Shown here: positions 3,381 to 9,738 of the stretch, one piece after another
How the letters are laid out: each line of letters starts with the position of its first letter
Numbering within the stretch: the first letter of the stretch is position 1
From: a virus
Reading direction: 5' to 3' (one strand)
Length of the DNA stretch: 13,194 nucleotides
UHGV virus genome: UHGV-1629023
Translations under genes and position numbers: made by a program
The notes under the pieces: generated by a model
Seen by the model: the letters and a program-made list of their open reading frames with translations, nothing else
What the model was told of the DNA's origin: nothing
Database searches by the model: none

Positions 3381-4097
3381 TCACTCTCCTTTGATGCGAA
3401 TGCCAGCGGCGCGGATTGCAGCGATGACTTCAGAAACTTTGTATGCCATTACCGTTTGGTAATCATCGTGAAAATCTGTTCGATGAAGCATGCTGCTACG
3501 TTCTGGGAGCGATATTTCCCGCGCTTCCAGTTCAGCAATCCGCTTCTCTGCGGCTTCCAGCTTCTCGCGCATATCGTCAACGTACTCGACCAGAGATCCG
3601 CCAGCAGGAATTTCGCACTCCTCGACCAGTTGGAAGTAGATATCAGCTGCGGCCCGTGTGTTGCTATGCCTAGCGTCGCCCATCTCACCTTCACGAAGAG
3701 CATCGCGTTCGGCGGTAAGATTGGCTATTTTGCTGTCTTTGCCTTCCAGCTCAACACGCAGCTTCCCTACCGTAAGCGCAATTTCCTCGTTCTCCTGGTC
3801 GCGGCGTTTTATGTATTGCTGGTTTCTTTCCCGTTCATCCAGTAGTGCCAGCACGGTAGCCGGATTGGCTGCGGCGATGAATTCAGCATTGGCCTGCTGT
3901 TCTATTTGGAAATCTTCATCGAAACCGCTTTCAGGATGCGCTCCTTCAATTCTGCAAATGGGAAGATATCCAACAACTTCACGATGAATTAGCGCATCAC
4001 CAGCATCAAATCTCTCCTCTCCATATTCGAGCGACCACACGCCACACGTTGCTTTTTCTGCCGCCTCACGCAGTGCCTGATAGTCAATCTTGTTCAC
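3381..4097 (-). CDS. Ead/Ea22-like protein
   Basis: Contains ...AEFIAAANPATVLALLDERE... and a coiled-coil C-terminal half typical of the Ead/Ea22 family. Likely start is the GTG at 4097 (GGAGG 6 nt upstream), forming a GTGA overlap with the stop of the upstream gene; the track start at 4130 is probably an over-extension. Confidence 0.8.
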   Translation of the reverse strand: MNKIDYQALREAAEKATCGVWSLEYGEERFDAGDALIHREVVGYLPICRIEGAHPESGFDEDFQIEQQANAEFIAAANPATVLALLDERERNQQYIKRRDQENEEIALTVGKLRVELEGKDSKIANLTAERDALREGEMGDARHSNTRAAADIYFQLVEECEIPAGGSLVEYVDDMREKLEAAEKRIAELEAREISLPERSSMLHRTDFHDDYQTVMAYKVSEVIAAIRAAGIRIKGE

Positions 4098-4555
4098 TGG
4101 CTGCCTCCTTTGCGAAGCTGCTCCGCACAATGCAGCAGGGCGTCCGTCGCTTCTTTCACCGTAACGATGTCGCCATCGTCCAGCCCGGCAACCGTCGCGT
4201 CCTTAACGAACACCGAGCAAAGGTCATTAAACGCCTGCGCCCGTACTTCAGCCAAGAAAGCGTCGGTGGCTGTGGTTTCGATATCGTTAATTTCAGGAAG
4301 AATCTCTTCCCATGTAGCGATATCGCCATTCAAATGCCACCCGGCAATTCCACTGGAGTTATCCGCAACACTCCGAACGGCTTCAATAGTTTCATGCATT
4401 GCCGCATTCAACGCCGCCAGCGCCGCGCACTTGGCCTCCGCTTCAGCAAATTTACGCACCAGATATTCAGCGTTTGTTTCGTTAACCTTTAAATCTCGGG
4501 GGATGCATTTACCTTTCAGGAATCCATCCATCTCAATTAGTGACATTTGTTTCAT
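4094..4555 (-). CDS. Hypothetical phage protein (153 aa)
   Basis: Intact ORF; its stop overlaps the downstream GTG start (GTGA) and its ATG at 4555 overlaps the stop of the upstream small gene (ATGA), so it is translationally coupled. Acidic protein, no family recognised. Confidence 0.65.
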
Positions 4556-4726: not shown

Positions 4727-5023
4727 TCAGTCATTACTGATAGCGCCATAGCGTGAGCGGTAATTACGCAGACGCGGGTCGATATATTCAGGGAAGTTGG
4801 TATATGTGGCTTTGCGGAATGGTCGGATTGATGTCTGGTAAATTCGCTCGCGTTCTTGTTTCTCTGCAAGCCATATACAATGACGAAATTCCTTTTCCTC
4901 TTTCGTTTCCTGCGGTAGCGACATTATCAGGTCGTAGTTTTTTCTGAATTTATCCAGCACCTCCAATACGGAATTGCCGGAACAGCGGCGCGCGTCGTCC
5001 GCACCATACAGAGGCGCTGGCAT
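4727..5023 (-). CDS. Hypothetical phage protein (98 aa)
   Basis: ATG at 5023 with AAGGA SD (7-nt spacer); lies between the SSB-like gene and the downstream ea genes on the same strand. Confidence 0.65.
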
Positions 5024-5046: not shown

Positions 5047-5430
5047 TTAGAAGGGAATTGAATCGTCGTATTCAGGATGATTTTGATGATTGCTACTTTG
5101 CTGCTGTTGGCTGTTTCCTGAAGTTGCAAATCCAATCTTTGCATTCAGTAATTCAAGAGTGATTGATTGACCATTTTGCCCCTGATAAACATCAACCCTG
5201 ATGTTTTCTCCGGTAATTTCTACAATGCCACCTTCAACAAGAACACTACGGTAGTAATCCGCTTGCGCTCCCGGCTTGGCAAATACAACGGCGCTGTAGT
5301 TTGTCCATTCTTTCTTTTTTGTCTGGCGATCGTAATACTGAACGCCAGCACGGATGTTGAATCCGATATTTTCCCCGGCCTGAAACTCTCTTGCTGGCTT
5401 GTTTAGTCTTACAGTAATCGAATGTGCCAT
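5047..5430 (-). CDS. ssb: Phage single-stranded DNA-binding protein-like (SSB-like)
   Basis: 127 aa ending ...SSNHQNHPEYDDSIPF: a Gln/Ser-rich linker and acidic DDxIPF tail characteristic of bacterial and phage SSB C-termini. Immediately downstream of erf with a TAATG stop/start overlap. Confidence 0.6.
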   Translation of the reverse strand: MAHSITVRLNKPAREFQAGENIGFNIRAGVQYYDRQTKKKEWTNYSAVVFAKPGAQADYYRSVLVEGGIVEITGENIRVDVYQGQNGQSITLELLNAKIGFATSGNSQQQQSSNHQNHPEYDDSIPF

Positions 5431-6035
5431 TAAGCAGCCGCTCCTTCTAATTCATCTCGTCTGATGTTGTAAACGTCCTGCGCTTTGTGCTGCTCCGGTG
5501 TGCCTTCGAGCATCTTCCACGCTTTGGCGAACGCCTGTTTAAGCTCTTCTACGGTGTTTTTCTGCATTGCTGCGTCAGTGAATGCCTTTAAAACCTGTTC
5601 AGGTGTAGGTGATGGCTTTGATTGCTTTGCTGCTGCGTTCTGCTGATGTTTATGCTCGTCTGTATCTGCATCTTTCGCATCATCTATGCCGAACAAACCA
5701 TTGAGGCAATACTTGCGTGCATAAGAGCTTGTAGCTCCAGTAACTTGTGCAGAATCCATTCCTTTCTTGCTTTCTTCCTCTCGTGCAAGGGCGGTTGCCG
5801 TATGACTGTTTTCGCCATCGGTAATAGTTGCCGTGGCTTTCACGTAATACCGATCACCAATCAACACAACTTCATCGCTGATTGATAAAAACAGGCCATT
5901 CAGTAGCGGCTTAACGCCTTCAAGAATGTCTTCGCAGCTTCTGTATTTATATTTACCGAATGAGTTGTACTGATTCTTTGGCGCGTTCAGATTCTCCTGA
6001 ATAGCTGCCAGTCTTGCGTAAAATTCTTTGCTCAT
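5430..6035 (-). CDS. erf: Erf family single-strand annealing recombinase (P22 Erf-like)
   Basis: From the ATG at 6035 the product begins MSKEFYARLAAIQENLNAPKNQYNSFGKYKYRSCEDILEGVKPLL..., which I recognise as the phage P22 Erf N-terminus (recalled, not searched). The track start at 6065 is a TTG over-extension. Confidence 0.85.
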   Translation of the reverse strand: MSKEFYARLAAIQENLNAPKNQYNSFGKYKYRSCEDILEGVKPLLNGLFLSISDEVVLIGDRYYVKATATITDGENSHTATALAREEESKKGMDSAQVTGATSSYARKYCLNGLFGIDDAKDADTDEHKHQQNAAAKQSKPSPTPEQVLKAFTDAAMQKNTVEELKQAFAKAWKMLEGTPEQHKAQDVYNIRRDELEGAAA

Positions 6036-6045
6036 ATGATTGTTC

Positions 6046-6216
6046 TCAGAATGGACATGGCCCAAGGAAATAACGCTGATTTAATACTTCGACTCGGGAC
6101 AAATTAAGGCATACCCGCATTCCTTCGCGGTCGCCATTATGGCGATACCAGAGAGCTTTCTGCGTGTACATGCGTCTCTGTAACTTGCTCTCCTTCACTG
6201 TGGTTGCAAGTGACAT
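6046..6216 (-). CDS. Small ORF immediately upstream of erf (56 aa, arf-position), tentative
   Basis: ATG at 6216 preceded by AAGGAG (7-nt spacer); stop 10 nt before the erf ATG. Product MSLATTVKESKLQRRMYTQKALWYRHNGDREGMRVCLNLSRVEVLNQRYFLGPCPF. Conflicts with an alternative 52-aa ORF 6137..6295 in another frame. Confidence 0.3.
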   Translation of the reverse strand: MSLATTVKESKLQRRMYTQKALWYRHNGDREGMRVCLNLSRVEVLNQRYFLGPCPF

Positions 6217-6291
6217 GAATATCTCCTTCGTTACCGATTAAATCTTTCATCTGACGAATGAATTCTTCGTCTGAACAGTTATCTGTAAAAC

Positions 6292-6444
6292 TCATTTCCT
6301 GCGATACCACGGAAGGTTGATAGCTGATTTCATCGCTTTATTTGCTTCAATCCACATTTTTGAATCACCAATAAATCTGGCTATTACTGCTTTGTTCTGT
6401 GCAGCACGAAGCATCTGGTGATTGATGGCTATTTCATTGCGCAT
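6292..6444 (-). CDS. kil: Kil-like small protein (50 aa), tentative
   Basis: ATG at 6444 preceded by GAGGT (6-nt spacer), overlapping the 3' end of the cIII-like gene. Product MRNEIAINHQMLRAAQNKAVIARFIGDSKMWIEANKAMKSAINLPWYRRK. Assignment rests on position (between cIII and erf) and size. Confidence 0.4.
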   Translation of the reverse strand: MRNEIAINHQMLRAAQNKAVIARFIGDSKMWIEANKAMKSAINLPWYRRK

Positions 6445-6560
6445 AATAAGACCTCAACTCTTTTCCATCCGTCACGTAATTTACGGGTGATTCGTTCAAG
6501 TAAAGATTCATTTAGTTGGAAGGCACCCATGCGAGCGCCTCCCGCGATTGCGTAAATCAT
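6429..6560 (-). CDS. cIII: CIII-like protein (FtsH inhibitor, CII stabiliser)
   Basis: 43-aa product MIYAIAGGARMGAFQLNESLLERITRKLRDGWKRVEVLLCAMK contains the ESLLERITRKLRDGWKR amphipathic core that I recall from lambda CIII. SD AAGGA about 7 nt upstream of the ATG at 6560. Confidence 0.75.
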   Translation of the reverse strand: MIYAIAGGARMGAFQLNESLLERITRKLRDGWKRVEVLLCAMK

Positions 6561-6584: not shown

Positions 6585-7553
6585 TTAGTAGGTTATTTTT
6601 GTTGCGAATACTTCGCCTTTTACGATGGCTGTTATGATATTTTTAGCAACATCTTCTGATGCGCCAACCTTGATAAGGTCAGCAAGTATTTTGTTATTTA
6701 CTTCTTTCCGGTGAGCTTTATCCTTTGCTCTACGCTCTTCTTCGCCCTTGATTCTTTTTTCTTCTGCTATTCTGGCTTGCTCTTTTGCTTCAGCCTCGCG
6801 ACGGATTCGTTCAGCCTCCTCCTGTGCTTTTCTGCGTTCTGCTTCAATTGCTGCCTGCTTTTCTCTTTCAGCTCGTTCTGCTGCCTCTTTTGCTTCGCGC
6901 TGTGCTCGTTGCTCGGCTTCAATGCGTTCACGCTCTGCACGTTCCGCTGCGGCCTTAGCTTCTGCTTCTCGCCTTGCTGCTGCTTCAATTTCGGCTTTTG
7001 CCTTTGCTTCGGCTTCTGCTCTGGCTTTCTCTTCAGCTTCTCTTTTTAATCGTTCTTCATGCTCTCGCTTTTCCTGCTCCGCTTTGAGTCTTGCCTCTTC
7101 TCTTTGGCGGTCAAATTCGCGATCCATCAAAATAGCTATTTCATGGTCAGACTCAATTTGCTTTGCGAGAGCTTCAGCTGCTGCCTTAGCTTCTTCTTCG
7201 GCTTTAATCCGCGCCTGTTCTTCCTCATAATCAGTAAGAGGCTGGCGCGCCTTGGCTTTCAGCTCATCAAGGCGATCACGCACTGTCTTGCGGTTAGCAT
7301 CAATTAGCTTTGGAATTTCCTTCAGTTCAGCAACAAGGTCTTTGCCAAGACCATCGAGATATGTTTTCGTCTGCGCAACTTTATACGCCAGAGAAGCGAT
7401 CTCCTTTCTGCCCTTTGCCGTTGTGATATCAGGCACAAAGGACATAACTTCATGTTCAACCTTTTGAAGGATTTCTTCAATCTGGTCGGCAGACTGAAAT
7501 ACAGTCATTGCATTTGCTTTTTCAATAACAACTAAATCTGTTACTTCACTCAT
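6585..7553 (-). CDS. Large early-left protein with a long E/A/K/R-rich coiled-coil core; function unknown
   Basis: ATG at 7553 preceded by GGAGGA (the track start at 7607 is upstream of this SD). N-terminal globular part (MSEVTDLVVIEKANAMTVFQSADQIEEILQKVEHEV...), about 150 aa of EAEAKAKAEIEAAARREAEAKAAAERAERERIEAEQRAQREAKEAAERAERE-type repeats, and a short C-terminal tail. Confidence 0.7.
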   Translation of the reverse strand: MSEVTDLVVIEKANAMTVFQSADQIEEILQKVEHEVMSFVPDITTAKGRKEIASLAYKVAQTKTYLDGLGKDLVAELKEIPKLIDANRKTVRDRLDELKAKARQPLTDYEEEQARIKAEEEAKAAAEALAKQIESDHEIAILMDREFDRQREEARLKAEQEKREHEERLKREAEEKARAEAEAKAKAEIEAAARREAEAKAAAERAERERIEAEQRAQREAKEAAERAEREKQAAIEAERRKAQEEAERIRREAEAKEQARIAEEKRIKGEEERRAKDKAHRKEVNNKILADLIKVGASEDVAKNIITAIVKGEVFATKITY

Positions 7554-7565
7554 ATATCCTCCATC

Positions 7566-7592
7566 AAAAAAATTGCCCTCACACTGGAGGGC
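7566..7592 (-). terminator. Intrinsic terminator (tL-like) upstream of the coiled-coil gene
   Basis: Minus-strand GCCCTC-cagtgt-GAGGGC (7575-7592) followed by AATTTTTTT (plus-strand A run 7566-7572). Lies downstream of N in the PL transcript, where N-dependent readthrough would be expected. Confidence 0.45.
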
Positions 7593-7728
7593 AAAGAAGA
7601 TTTCCAATAATCAGAACAAGTCGGCTCCTGTTTAGTTACGAGCGACATTGCTCCGTGTATTCACTCGTTGGAATGAATACACAGTGCAGTGTTTATTCTG
7701 TTGTTTATGCCAAAAATACAGGCCACCA

Positions 7729-7980
7729 TCAGGCAGCCTTGTTGTAAATGTTGCAGGTATCAAGTAAGTAATTAGATGGAGCGCCATAAATTATGAATTC
7801 ATCGTTTGTCGGGTCCATCTCCATCTCTTGGCCTATTGCCATTCTTGCGTCAGTGTCATCAGCGGCGAAGCATAAAACAGCCCACGCACCCATTGTTTTA
7901 AAAAGAACTGCAATTGGCTGTGGTTTTACTGAATTTGCGTTAGCGCGAAAATCACAAATCGCACTTTCATGAAACTCCAT
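7729..7980 (-). CDS. Hypothetical early-left protein (83 aa)
   Basis: ATG at 7980 with GAGGTG SD; sits between N and the coiled-coil gene, the slot used by ral/sieB/ea10-type accessory genes in lambda and P22. Ral-like function is only a positional guess. Confidence 0.55.
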   Translation of the reverse strand: MEFHESAICDFRANANSVKPQPIAVLFKTMGAWAVLCFAADDTDARMAIGQEMEMDPTNDEFIIYGAPSNYLLDTCNIYNKAA

Positions 7981-7988
7981 ATCTCACC

Positions 7989-8288
7989 TCAAATAAGTGG
8001 TTTGCTGCCTAATTTCATTTTCTGGCGACCAACACAAGTCACACCCATTTCACTGCGTGGCTTGCGGTAGTAAATGCGATTCTGTTTACTCTCGACTTCT
8101 TCTGCCTTCTTGCAGCGAAGGCTTCCGAGTGATGCTGCTTTATCTGCTCTGACGCAACCAGAGAGCTTTAGCGCAATTTTTCGCGCCAGTCGCTGCTCTT
8201 GCATTGCCTGTTCACGTTGAGCCTGTCTGCGTGCTCTGCGGCGATTTCTGGCGTTATCGTCAGCCAGATATGTAATGACTACTGTCAT
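7989..8288 (-). CDS. N: Antitermination protein N
   Basis: From the ATG at 8288 (GGAGG 5 nt upstream) the 99-aa product has an N-terminal arginine-rich motif (DDNARNRRRARRQAQREQ) and a C-terminus RIYYRKPRSEMGVTCVGRQKMKLGSKPLI resembling lambda N (...WYSKPGERGITCSGRQKIKGKSIPLI, recalled). The nutL boxA/boxB lie just upstream. Confidence 0.8.
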   Translation of the reverse strand: MTVVITYLADDNARNRRRARRQAQREQAMQEQRLARKIALKLSGCVRADKAASLGSLRCKKAEEVESKQNRIYYRKPRSEMGVTCVGRQKMKLGSKPLI

Positions 8289-8376
8289 GTTGACCTCCGA
8301 TGATTGACTTTGGCGGTGACGCGCCGGGTGCTTATCTTCCGGTTGCCGTCGTGCAGCTGCCAACTACTCTTTGGTT

Positions 8377-8416
8377 CCCGCATTTCGGCGGGACAATCCC
8401 ATCAATGTTAAAGAGC
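8377..8416 (-). promoter_or_regulatory. nutL: nutL: boxA (GCTCTTTAACA) plus boxB hairpin (CCCGC-CGAAAT-GCGGG)
   Basis: On the minus strand, boxA GCTCTTTAACA (8406-8416) is followed 13 nt later by the boxB stem-loop (8377-8392). The same boxB sequence recurs in nutR at 10064-10079. Located between PL and N. Confidence 0.6.
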
Positions 8417-8462
8417 CTGCCAATCTGTTCCGTTTGGCTTCCAGCGTCCTGCTGATGGCTAA

Positions 8463-8549
8463 AGAATACTGTAGGTATTTTATTGTGTAAATACCCAAGG
8501 TATTTATTTTTGGTGAAATAATGATAAGCAAATGAATACAAAGGATATT
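8463..8549 (-). promoter_or_regulatory. PL promoter with OL operators (AATAC-N5-GTATT sites)
   Basis: Minus-strand -35 TTTACA (8486-8491), 17-bp spacer, -10 TATTCT (8463-8468). Three 15-bp near-palindromes: aatactgtaggtatt (8465-8479), aatacccaaggtatt (8490-8504), aatacaaaggatatt (8535-8549). The first two overlap the -10 and -35. Confidence 0.5.
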
Positions 8550-8635
8550 TATTTTTTCGGTGTCTGCTTGTTCAGTGCGTTTTATGCGGGATATGTGAAG
8601 TGGATCCCGATAGCTATTGCTGCCGGGATTATAGG

Positions 8636-9004
8636 TTAGTCAGCGAAGGTTAAGACGAGAATTACCTTAATGATGTCTGCTACAACAGACACGGCCATAG
8701 ATAAACCAAAGACGATCCAAGCCACAGTGATGTCTTCACTACCATCGTATAGAGTTCCGTAATCACTGGTGTAAGGCGTAAATGTCGCGCCTTGATACAA
8801 TAGGTATAAGCTTGATCCATAGAGGATAAATGCAGATATCCCTTGTATTGCTATGATCACCAGAATCATGAAACGAGCTGATCTATGCGCCCAAGCCTGG
8901 CTTATTTTTTCTGATAGAGATTTCGCAATAAAAGCATGCGCTAAGCCGTAAATTGTCGAGATTGCCAACATCCCAAAAAAGCTTGCTATAGCGGTTCCAA
9001 CCAT
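8636..9004 (-). CDS. Small integral membrane protein (about 122 aa, 3 predicted TM helices) encoded immediately downstream of cI
   Basis: ATG at 9004 preceded by AAGGGG (5-nt spacer) (the track start at 9025 is a TTG overlapping the cI stop). Three hydrophobic segments (AIASFFGMLAISTIYGLAHAFIA; FMILVIIAIQGISAFILYGSSLYLLY; VAWIVFGLSMAVSVVADIIKVILVLTF). Occupies the slot held by rexA-rexB in lambda. Confidence 0.6.
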   Translation of the reverse strand: MVGTAIASFFGMLAISTIYGLAHAFIAKSLSEKISQAWAHRSARFMILVIIAIQGISAFILYGSSLYLLYQGATFTPYTSDYGTLYDGSEDITVAWIVFGLSMAVSVVADIIKVILVLTFAD

Positions 9005-9021
9005 AATCGCCCCTTGCGTGA

Positions 9022-9738
9022 TCAAACCAGCCTTAGTTTTGTCTCAATTGCAACGCCTATAATCTTGCAGTTTCCATTGATTGGCACGAGAGGCCATGCA
9101 GGATTAAGTCCCTTGAGGTATTTATTTCCGCCGTCGATTATCAGCTTCTTGAATGTTGCTTCGTTAGAGTCAGAAAGTTTTGCTATGACCAAGCTGCCGT
9201 TGATCGCCTCCCTTCCGGTATCGAAAAGAACGAATGTTCCCTCTGGAATGCTTAACCCAACCGGTGCCGTCATTGAATCACCTTCCACTTTAAGCCAGAA
9301 CGCATTACCTTGAATATGCGCGTCAGACTCAAGCCAAACATCTATGTCTTTAATGGTGTATGGTTCGCATGCTTCACACCACGAGCCAGCCTGGATACTG
9401 CTTAACACCGGATACCTCTTTCCTGCTCTGTATTCCCCTGCATACCTTACGTTGGCATCGCTCTTAAGGCTTTCTGCCTGTTCTGCAACCTTGGCAGCAA
9501 TTGACTGGCTAAAATCAGCAATTGAGACTTGCAACAATCGTGCAAAACCAGATGCAACCTCAACGTTTAGCGCATTTCTGCCATTAAGATAATGCCCTAC
9601 CGCTCCTTGGGTGATACCCAGTTCATCAGCGATTGAGTATTGGGTTATCCCCAATTCTTTCTTTTTTGACTCATACAAAGCCTTAAGCCGCTTAGCGTCT
9701 TCCAGCTGTTCTGTCGTCAGTGATTTTTTATTTTCCAT
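9022..9738 (-). CDS. cI: CI repressor (lambda CI family, HTH plus S24 LexA-like autopeptidase domain)
   Basis: 238 aa; N-terminus MENKKSLTTEQLEDAKRLKALYESKKKELGITQ... parallels lambda CI ([34 protein letters not shown], recalled). C-terminal domain has GDSM (catalytic Ser) and ATFKKL (Lys). Divergent from cro across the OR region. Confidence 0.9.
   Translation of the reverse strand: MENKKSLTTEQLEDAKRLKALYESKKKELGITQYSIADELGITQGAVGHYLNGRNALNVEVASGFARLLQVSIADFSQSIAAKVAEQAESLKSDANVRYAGEYRAGKRYPVLSSIQAGSWCEACEPYTIKDIDVWLESDAHIQGNAFWLKVEGDSMTAPVGLSIPEGTFVLFDTGREAINGSLVIAKLSDSNEATFKKLIIDGGNKYLKGLNPAWPLVPINGNCKIIGVAIETKLRLV

Follow-up and report, generated by a model that had tools for sequence, protein, structure and literature searches.

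The gene at positions 6585-7553, on the minus strand, of a 13,194-nucleotide stretch of the virus genome UHGV-1629023 (the whole of which we call the window) encodes a 322-residue protein with a long, highly charged helix, and an earlier note on this DNA had left its family unrecognised. By sequence comparison we show that the protein is a conserved and translated member of the Agt/Mog family, recognisable through Sf6 gp33, D3 orf53 and phi80 Agt/Mog, and we regard it as an even call whether it serves as an accessory of the phage module for recombination and host-nuclease control. The gene itself is ordinary: roughly a tenth of complete E. coli genomes carry it, and sequenced phages have contained it since Sf6 and D3. 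The link made here places a common "hypothetical" or "TolA" prophage gene with the barely studied Agt/Mog of phi80, in a family found with all classes of phage strand-annealing recombinase and with a number of unrelated anti-RecBCD proteins. This assignment corrects a widespread mis-annotation and offers a testable function for a family that Pfam does not cover. The family may be a missing player in the way temperate phages handle host DNA-end nucleases, which bears on recombineering toolkits and on RecBCD as a barrier to phages.

BLASTP aligns the window protein with Agt of phi80 (also called Lula; PHI80_40, GenBank JX871397) end to end, residues 1-322 in each, with 51% identity (E=3e-63). 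The phi80 record describes agt (322 amino acids, aa) as "anti-toxin for Gam; Mog (modifier of Gam)" and gamL, which comes directly after it and ahead of RecT and exo, as "host RecBCD/SbcCD enzymes inhibitor; toxic without Mog." The record of HF4s, whose gene is 99.6% identical to that of the window, labels it "similar to phage phi80 Agt; Gam antitoxin." We collected 183 sequences, namely the window and 182 loci drawn from close relatives, a consensus-seeded IMG/VR set, annotated phages, and metagenomic contigs; tblastn with phi80 Agt matches 181 of the 183. The window and phi80 proteins have in common their length, the motif of the N-terminal domain (N-domain), a helix rich in E, A, R, and K, a C-terminal domain (C-domain) ending in I-x-Y, and a place in the PL operon upstream of recombination genes. 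They differ in what follows, which is gamL in phi80 but cIII and kil in the window, where the unrelated Abc2 is the anti-RecBCD protein.

Closer relatives are abundant. The DNA of the gene matches its counterparts in HF4s, CUS-3, IME10, HK544, mEp043/213/234, Sf101, Sf6, and several Stx1a phages at 97.9-99.6% identity, and at ≥95% identity it was found in 530 of 5,426 complete E. coli genomes (~10%). Sf6 gene 33 is the same gene (97.9% DNA identity), annotated as hypothetical or "TolA"; the Sf6 annotation shows the same layout as the window and calls gene 33 "similar to phage D3 orf53." D3 orf53 and JBD44 gp65, likewise hypothetical or "TolA," share the architecture, and their N-domains are 52-66% identical to that of the window protein. 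Whereas the window gene is beside cIII, these Pseudomonas phages have theirs immediately ahead of Erf and an exonuclease.

The coordinates given in the earlier note proved exact. Reading from the sequence, the ATG start is at 7553 and the TAA stop at 6585-6587, and a ribosome-binding site, GGAGGA, occupies 7557-7562 on the same minus strand, 3 nucleotides (nt) from the ATG. The mechanical open reading frame (ORF) extends further, to a TTG at 7607, and would read through a terminator; MSEVTDL is the start of all homologues. For selection, the ratio of nonsynonymous to synonymous substitution rates (dN/dS) was computed in the minus-strand frame on 72 distinct alleles from 80 related IMG/VR loci. 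It is 0.02 for the N-domain (residues 1-110), 0.10 for the charged rod (111-277), and 0.32 for the C-domain (278-322), and all three parts are under purifying selection. From these values, the minus-strand frame is the translated one and the charged stretch is constrained, which answers the concern that the real gene might be much shorter and its repeat untranslated: the frame is translated over the full 322 aa. As the earlier note had observed, the gene leaves a strong mark on the opposite strand. Over 6700-7000 the AT skew of the plus strand falls to -0.73 and GC content reaches 0.51, against ~0.41 in the flanks, and a Cys/Phe-rich ORF (6711-7049) and a Ser/Ala-rich ORF (6748-7230) lie on the plus strand opposite the gene. 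Given the purifying selection on the minus-strand frame, these ORFs are by-products.

The protein has three parts. The N-domain (residues 1-110; 7224-7553, minus strand), delimited from alignments, is most conserved over residues 46-110 and has the core motif VPDxSTxKGRKEIASxAxKV..K..LD..GK.L, in which G48, R49, and G70 are invariant; after the motif, conserved basic residues form a stripe along a helix. The helical rod (about residues 111-277; 6723-7223, minus strand) was defined by composition, charge pairs, periodicity, and AlphaFold2. Residues 109-290 contain 27.5% E, 24.2% A, 15.4% R, and 11.0% K, together 78%, so the composition described in the earlier note stands, and its length of 150 aa becomes ~175 aa. 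Within the rod is a more hydrophobic, partly conserved segment, ESDHEIAILMDREFDR (residues 134-149). The C-domain (residues 278-322 and the stop codon; 6585-6722, minus strand), which the earlier description did not contain, is a conserved mini-domain of ~45 aa found across 104 diverse members, with the consensus D.EHR..IN..A...L...G.tEeqAK.vv.AIA.G.I.nV.I.Y; it finishes at the protein C-terminus with the conserved I-x-Y. The picture of a globular N-terminal part followed by a long charged helix, in an early-left operon, is thus supported.

This architecture is that of the family and holds across 104 diverse members. We ran an exhaustive N-domain profile search against 1.84 billion representative proteins, which found 5,622 clusters (at 50% identity) at E≤1e-3 and 1,716 at E≤1e-30. 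Nearly all full-length members keep an N-domain of ~110 aa, a helix, and a C-domain of ~45 aa; the E/A/K/R helix has a median length of 171 aa (range 116-272). The window protein agrees with the family pattern of ~300-350 aa, a KGR-motif N-domain, an E/A/R/K helix, and a C-domain ending in I-x-Y/F. Among sequenced phages the family occurs in 188 of 50,697 records, all of them phages of ~38-60 kb with gamma-, beta-, or alphaproteobacterial hosts only. It has no Pfam, NCBIfam, or PADLOC model, and PHROG 1376, which covers the window protein, carries no assigned function. Remote homology searching with the N-domain, as proposed in the earlier note, gave the family and no match in Pfam, NCBIfam, or the PDB.

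Phi80 Agt/Mog is the only studied relative of the window protein. Rotman and colleagues, in 2012, reportedly found gamL as a gene toxic to E. coli, and agt is said to be "its own antidote, apparently encoding a modifier protein"; phi80 lysogens reportedly behave like recD and sbcCD phenocopies. In the literature searched, we found no functional study of Sf6 gp33, phrog_1376, TolA-like prophage proteins, or phi80 Agt, and nothing indicating that Agt itself inhibits RecBCD. A 2025 survey (PMC12315714) counts GamL among four non-homologous anti-RecBCD types and leaves Agt undiscussed.

The genomic neighbourhood is consistent with a role beside recombination. We took the 142 loci having ≥3 kb of flank on both sides. 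In 133 of them, an ERF, RecT, Sak4-like ATPase, or YqaJ/RecE gene lies within 3 kb on the same strand, and the other nine hold a divergent RecT (PF03837) and Sipho_Gp157, found by tblastn and Pfam, such that a strand-annealing recombinase module always accompanies the gene in the loci examined. The association extends well outside the lambdoid layout: JBD44 and phiLM21 have the order agt-family gene, Erf, exonuclease, with no recognised inhibitor; PLPE has RecE, Bet, agt-family gene, RdgC; and Serratia Eta, Yersinia 210.17, and Vibrio Seahorse have their nearest Rec-module gene ~0.6 kb from the agt-family gene. Metagenomic contigs likewise place the gene close to recombination genes. As background, 68 of 325 lambdoid phages are without any Rec module (PMC12315714, Table 1).

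The nearby anti-RecBCD genes, by contrast with the recombinase, vary. Among the 154 loci having ≥4 kb downstream, the agt-family gene is beside Abc2 in 80, GamL in 25, gp157 in seven, lambda Gam in four, and two anti-RecBCD types together in two, and in 36 none of the known anti-RecBCD genes was detected. The gamL gene is carried by 28 of 181 loci and begins ~11 bp past the agt stop in 27 of the 28, and the adjacency persists where GamL shares only 46-53% identity with its phi80 counterpart. Copies of the Sf6-type protein at 98-99% identity sit with Abc2 (the window), with lambda Gam/Bet/Exo (phiSTEC801), and with RecT and gp157 (locus L012). Since near-identical proteins occur beside unrelated inhibitors or none, their target is probably something common to all of these settings, a host nuclease or DNA, and binding to one particular inhibitor is less likely.

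Locus L012 carries at 7652-9029 a divergent RecT (PF03837, E=2.7e-32) directly followed by Sipho_Gp157 (PF05565, E=3.7e-38), and the same arrangement occurs in L010, L038, L046, L052, L053, and L101, all E. coli lambdoid prophages. Sipho_Gp157 is best known from Streptococcus phages, where it is annotated as Mu Gam-like end protection.

We propose the following mechanism. The agt/mog product would be a cytoplasmic protein of the early-left (PL) operon, made only after N antitermination, at the same time as cIII, kil, and the recombination module of Erf, SSB, and Abc2. Its N-domain would be helical, with an invariant KGR loop. The protein would tune the consequences of disabling RecBCD/SbcCD, with host nucleases or DNA ends, rather than one specific inhibitor protein, as its target, and the rod may hold the two end domains apart at a fixed long distance, as a spacer between binding domains. 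Such an accessory role fits the "modifier/antidote" phenotype of phi80 without requiring GamL. Lambda Gam, phi80 GamL, and P22 Abc2 belong to the same operon and functional neighbourhood as agt, and the reported role of the family concerns the same host enzymes, but these proteins are 93-98 aa long and unrelated in sequence to the 322-aa window protein. A broader version, which we put forward tentatively and think somewhat unlikely, is that the Agt/Mog family is an unrecognised general component of Rec modules in Proteobacteria: a two-headed rod of ~25 nm binding DNA ends and/or the long-armed nucleases RecBCD and SbcCD, and setting the extent to which host end processing is shut down, be the inhibitor Gam, GamL, Abc2, gp157, or none. 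If true, the agt-family protein could itself control host nucleases in phages without a known inhibitor.

The same neighbourhood data can be read differently. The protein could be a stand-alone recombination or DNA-end factor that needs no anti-RecBCD protein: the basic stripe of the N-domain and a helix-hairpin-helix (HhH)-like C-domain would bind DNA, and the protein would tether or protect ends for the recombinase. On this reading, end protection would bring about the phi80 antidote effect as a by-product. We consider this unlikely, although a recombinase is always near and 36 of the 154 loci lack a known anti-RecBCD gene, and although the JBD44 and phiLM21 order puts the gene directly with Erf and exonuclease and no recognised inhibitor. 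In Firmicutes phages, the slot by erf-ssb, sak4, or recT holds Mu Gam-like genes, Sipho_Gp157 (PF05565), DUF1351 (PF07083), or DUF2483, and the genes upstream of the recombinase, in a slot also seen in Sfi21, have been proposed to have analogous end-protection or nuclease-linked functions (PMC8093625), which would favour an end-protection role by position. We found no DUF1351 example in phage 80alpha or Sfi21. By sequence the parallel is not borne out: homology to Sfi21 gp157 is ruled out for the N-domain (hhalign probability 0.3%), and a Pfam scan of 104 diverse members gave low-complexity helical matches only, with none of the 104 matching the end-protection families DUF1351, gp157, or Gam. 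The agt-family protein also coexists with gp157 and with lambda Gam, so it is no replacement for them.

The C-domain provides the other argument for DNA binding. Its best PDB profile match is to the HhH repeats of EEPD1 (E=0.011, below threshold); among 50 members, RuvA_C (PF07499) and HHH_3 (PF12836) each match three and HHH_5, HHH_2, and HHH one each, all below the Pfam cut-offs; and RuvA turns up in Foldseek at E ~8. We treat this likeness to HhH and RuvA_C as a sub-threshold lead for a possible DNA-binding C-domain. Against it, not one of the HhH signals reaches threshold, and the canonical second glycine is missing from the motif.

The earlier note had pointed to host takeover or anti-defence, on the ground that the gene sits between cIII and N. 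The position is confirmed, with a terminator and an 83-aa ORF lying between the gene and the N-type ORF. In its strict form this explanation makes the protein an anti-defence or host-takeover accessory unrelated to recombination, with the helix as spacer or decoy against a host defence system or another host process and the linkage to Rec genes positional only. The variable N-cIII stretch is where lambdoid phages carry ral, sieB, gene 17, and ea10 (the window gene is in what we take to be the lambda ea10 position), and the same allele moves among phages with different modules. Set against this are the strong purifying selection and fixed length of the protein, a very large family whose architecture is conserved across alpha-, beta-, and gammaproteobacterial phages, and an invariable co-occurrence with recombinases, with adjacency in several non-lambdoid phages too. 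The sole PADLOC match, LmuB at E=0.035, falls on helical low-complexity sequence, and the only experimental handle, the phi80 record, points to control of RecBCD/SbcCD. We hold this explanation to be quite improbable.

The N-domain carries a net charge of -3, the rod (over ~165 aa) -8, and the C-domain +3. With its charges close to balance the rod is unlike acidic DNA mimics, and the suggestion that it acts as a protein or DNA mimic found no support. In a broad sense the earlier idea survives: RecBCD degrades phage DNA, and the role of phi80 Agt, tied to host nucleases, therefore counts as host takeover or anti-defence. The gene is not a fast-evolving accessory: it shows strong conservation, its family comprises 5,622 clusters, and it is linked to Rec genes.

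We turn now to the physical nature of the rod. Pairs at i/i+3 and i/i+4 in the helix comprise 89 of opposite charge and 27 of like charge, a difference of 62 versus 0.4 ± 10.5 in shuffled sequences, or ~6 standard deviations above. For the heptad test, power at period 3.5 is 5.4 and the maximum over 3.3-3.9 is 35.2, whereas shuffles have a maximum of 30.1 ± 12.5 and 29% of them reach the value of the helix. Large hydrophobic residues between positions 150 and 285 are spaced 6-25 residues apart, mostly 12 or more. The missing 3.5-residue periodicity and these sparse hydrophobics speak against a canonical heptad coiled coil, and the statistics favour a single-alpha-helix-type rod. Of the single-helix and coiled-coil domains named in the earlier note, the charge pattern agrees with the former, and the heptad signal of the latter is absent. 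ER/K single-alpha-helix domains are alike in their high E/K/R/A content, opposite-charge pairs at i/i+3 and i/i+4, lack of a heptad seam, and in-frame length changes; the window rod is richer in alanine, and the resemblance is physical rather than one of homology.

Structure models agree on helicity and differ on shape. AlphaFold2 run on the single sequence predicts one continuous helix over residues 108-295. With a 104-sequence alignment, the predicted local distance difference test (pLDDT) score is 85.3, and helices cover 46-172 and 183-295, separated by a break at 173-182 with pLDDT <50; the C-domain scores 94-97. The low-confidence break could mean a hairpin. In a crude test for mirrored hydrophobic positions, the window protein scores 12 of 13 at S=345 and the family as a whole gives no consistent peak, and variants with an insertion or deletion in one arm argue against a register-specific hairpin.

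Several points weigh against the accessory role. The function given to the family goes back to the notes in the phi80 GenBank record. The window has no GamL homologue, so the sole reported activity of the family cannot literally apply there. The 142 loci collapse to 18 clusters at 80% identity and so are not independent, and part of the closeness to the Rec module in lambdoid phages comes from a fixed operon order; the most detailed lambdoid survey does not count this gene as a Rec-module member (PMC12315714). The two AlphaFold2 models differ in that the helix may be a straight rod (~25 nm) or a hairpin that unites the end domains. Finally, fold and family searches supply no match that indicates a biochemical activity: there is no real match in Pfam, NCBIfam, or PADLOC for the whole protein or either end domain, and profile searches of the PDB, run with the full alignment and with each end domain, returned nothing significant.

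Here we must return to the name under which this gene is commonly deposited. RefSeq and many phage records call it "cell envelope biogenesis protein TolA" or "TolA protein," and the rod does resemble TolA domain II in composition, as a physical type and not by homology. With the tolA_full model TIGR02794, whose cut-off is 59.45, the protein reaches 9.2 bits (E=0.62), on the low-complexity helix only; the N-terminus, MSEVTDLVVIEKANAM, is not a membrane segment, and there is no hydrophobic anchor, no domain III, and a phage early-operon context. Judged by these comparisons, the RefSeq name is a composition artefact, and we give almost no credence to a TolA-like cell-envelope protein. Among the product names given to the family, at least seven have nothing to do with one another: TolA, cell envelope biogenesis protein, fibrinogen binding protein, putative tail-fiber protein, colicin import membrane protein, putative DNA repair protein, and antitoxin. 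HF4s takes "antitoxin" from phi80 Agt; most of the others look like artefacts of the low-complexity helix.

The charged region had been described as a low-complexity repeat, with a comparison of repeat number across related prophages suggested. Tandem Repeats Finder reports weak arrays only (scores 43-48); the region is compositional and imperfect, with no clean tandem repeat at the DNA level, so that the charged composition holds and the clean repeat does not. Length is exactly 322 aa in 78 of 80 close relatives, and the remaining two are C-terminal frameshift variants. At ≥90% identity there are in-frame variants of 245 aa (P0168, -77), 275 aa (P0087, -47), 300 aa (P0074, -22), and 333 aa (P0072, a duplication of +11), all four of which map inside the charged helix and arise between internal EA(K/R) repeats. 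Rod length can change and rarely does. A hypervariable tandem-repeat polymorphism is ruled out by the constant length of the close relatives and the weak repeat signal, and the length polymorphism looked for is accordingly rare. Three of the four in-frame changes are multiples of 11 residues.

Some relatives carry odd precomputed Pfam tags (DUF2856/Abc2), which are due to prophage-decay fusions. Three such fusions were seen (P0019, P0037, and P0047). In P0019, the first ~80 residues of the agt/mog protein are joined in frame to the C-terminal ~30 of Abc2, which implies a deletion of ~2 kb taking cIII, kil, erf, and ssb; in P0037 and P0047, the agt/mog protein is fused to other sequences.

Expression of the gene can be judged from its upstream flank. 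A strong intrinsic terminator, found by terminator scan at 7566-7594 on the minus strand, reads TTGCCCTC-CAGTGT-GAGGGCAA followed by T7; its stem-loop (7573-7594) has an 8-bp GC-rich stem, and the T-run stops 3 nt short of the ribosome-binding site and 12 nt short of the agt start codon. The Sf6 record annotates "tL2A, homology to phage lambda" at the equivalent position upstream of gene 33. With a terminator just upstream of the start codon, we infer that N antitermination should be needed for transcripts to reach agt, cIII, kil, and the Rec module.

The genes downstream run on one strand in the order agt-cIII-kil-(two small ORFs)-erf-ssb-abc2. Directly after agt/mog, cIII occupies 6429-6560 (minus; Pfam Lambda_CIII, E=4e-15) and kil 6292-6444 (minus; Lambda_Kil, E=1.9e-19). 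Between kil and erf, at 6046-6310 (minus), are two small overlapping ORFs of 56 and 57 aa, which correspond to Sf6 genes annotated as HK97 gp42- and gp42.1-like. Erf is at 5430-6065 (minus; Pfam ERF, E=2.1e-44), and Abc2, the P22-type anti-RecBCD protein, at 4727-5023 (minus; Anti-RecBCD_p2, E=1.7e-60), 1.6 kb downstream of agt. Between these two, an SSB-like protein of 127 aa (5047-5430, minus) has no Pfam match and a C-terminus of ...EYDDSIPF, a tail that resembles the C-terminal tip of bacterial SSB; it is probably a divergent Rec-module protein of the "SSB-1b/1c" type discussed in PMC12315714. Further on, an Ead/Ea22-like protein is recognised by Pfam at 3381-4130.

Upstream of agt/mog, the 83-aa ORF (7729-7980, minus) lies between the terminator and the N-type gene and has no Pfam match; HF4s carries a different gene at this position, a "TM helix-containing protein." The N-type antiterminator ORF is at 7989-8363, and beyond it in the window are cI, cro, cII, an O-like gene, and a DnaB-type helicase. 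Just downstream of cI, a 129-aa ORF with several hydrophobic segments (8636-9025, minus), without a Pfam match, occupies the position of a rexB/sieB-type gene.

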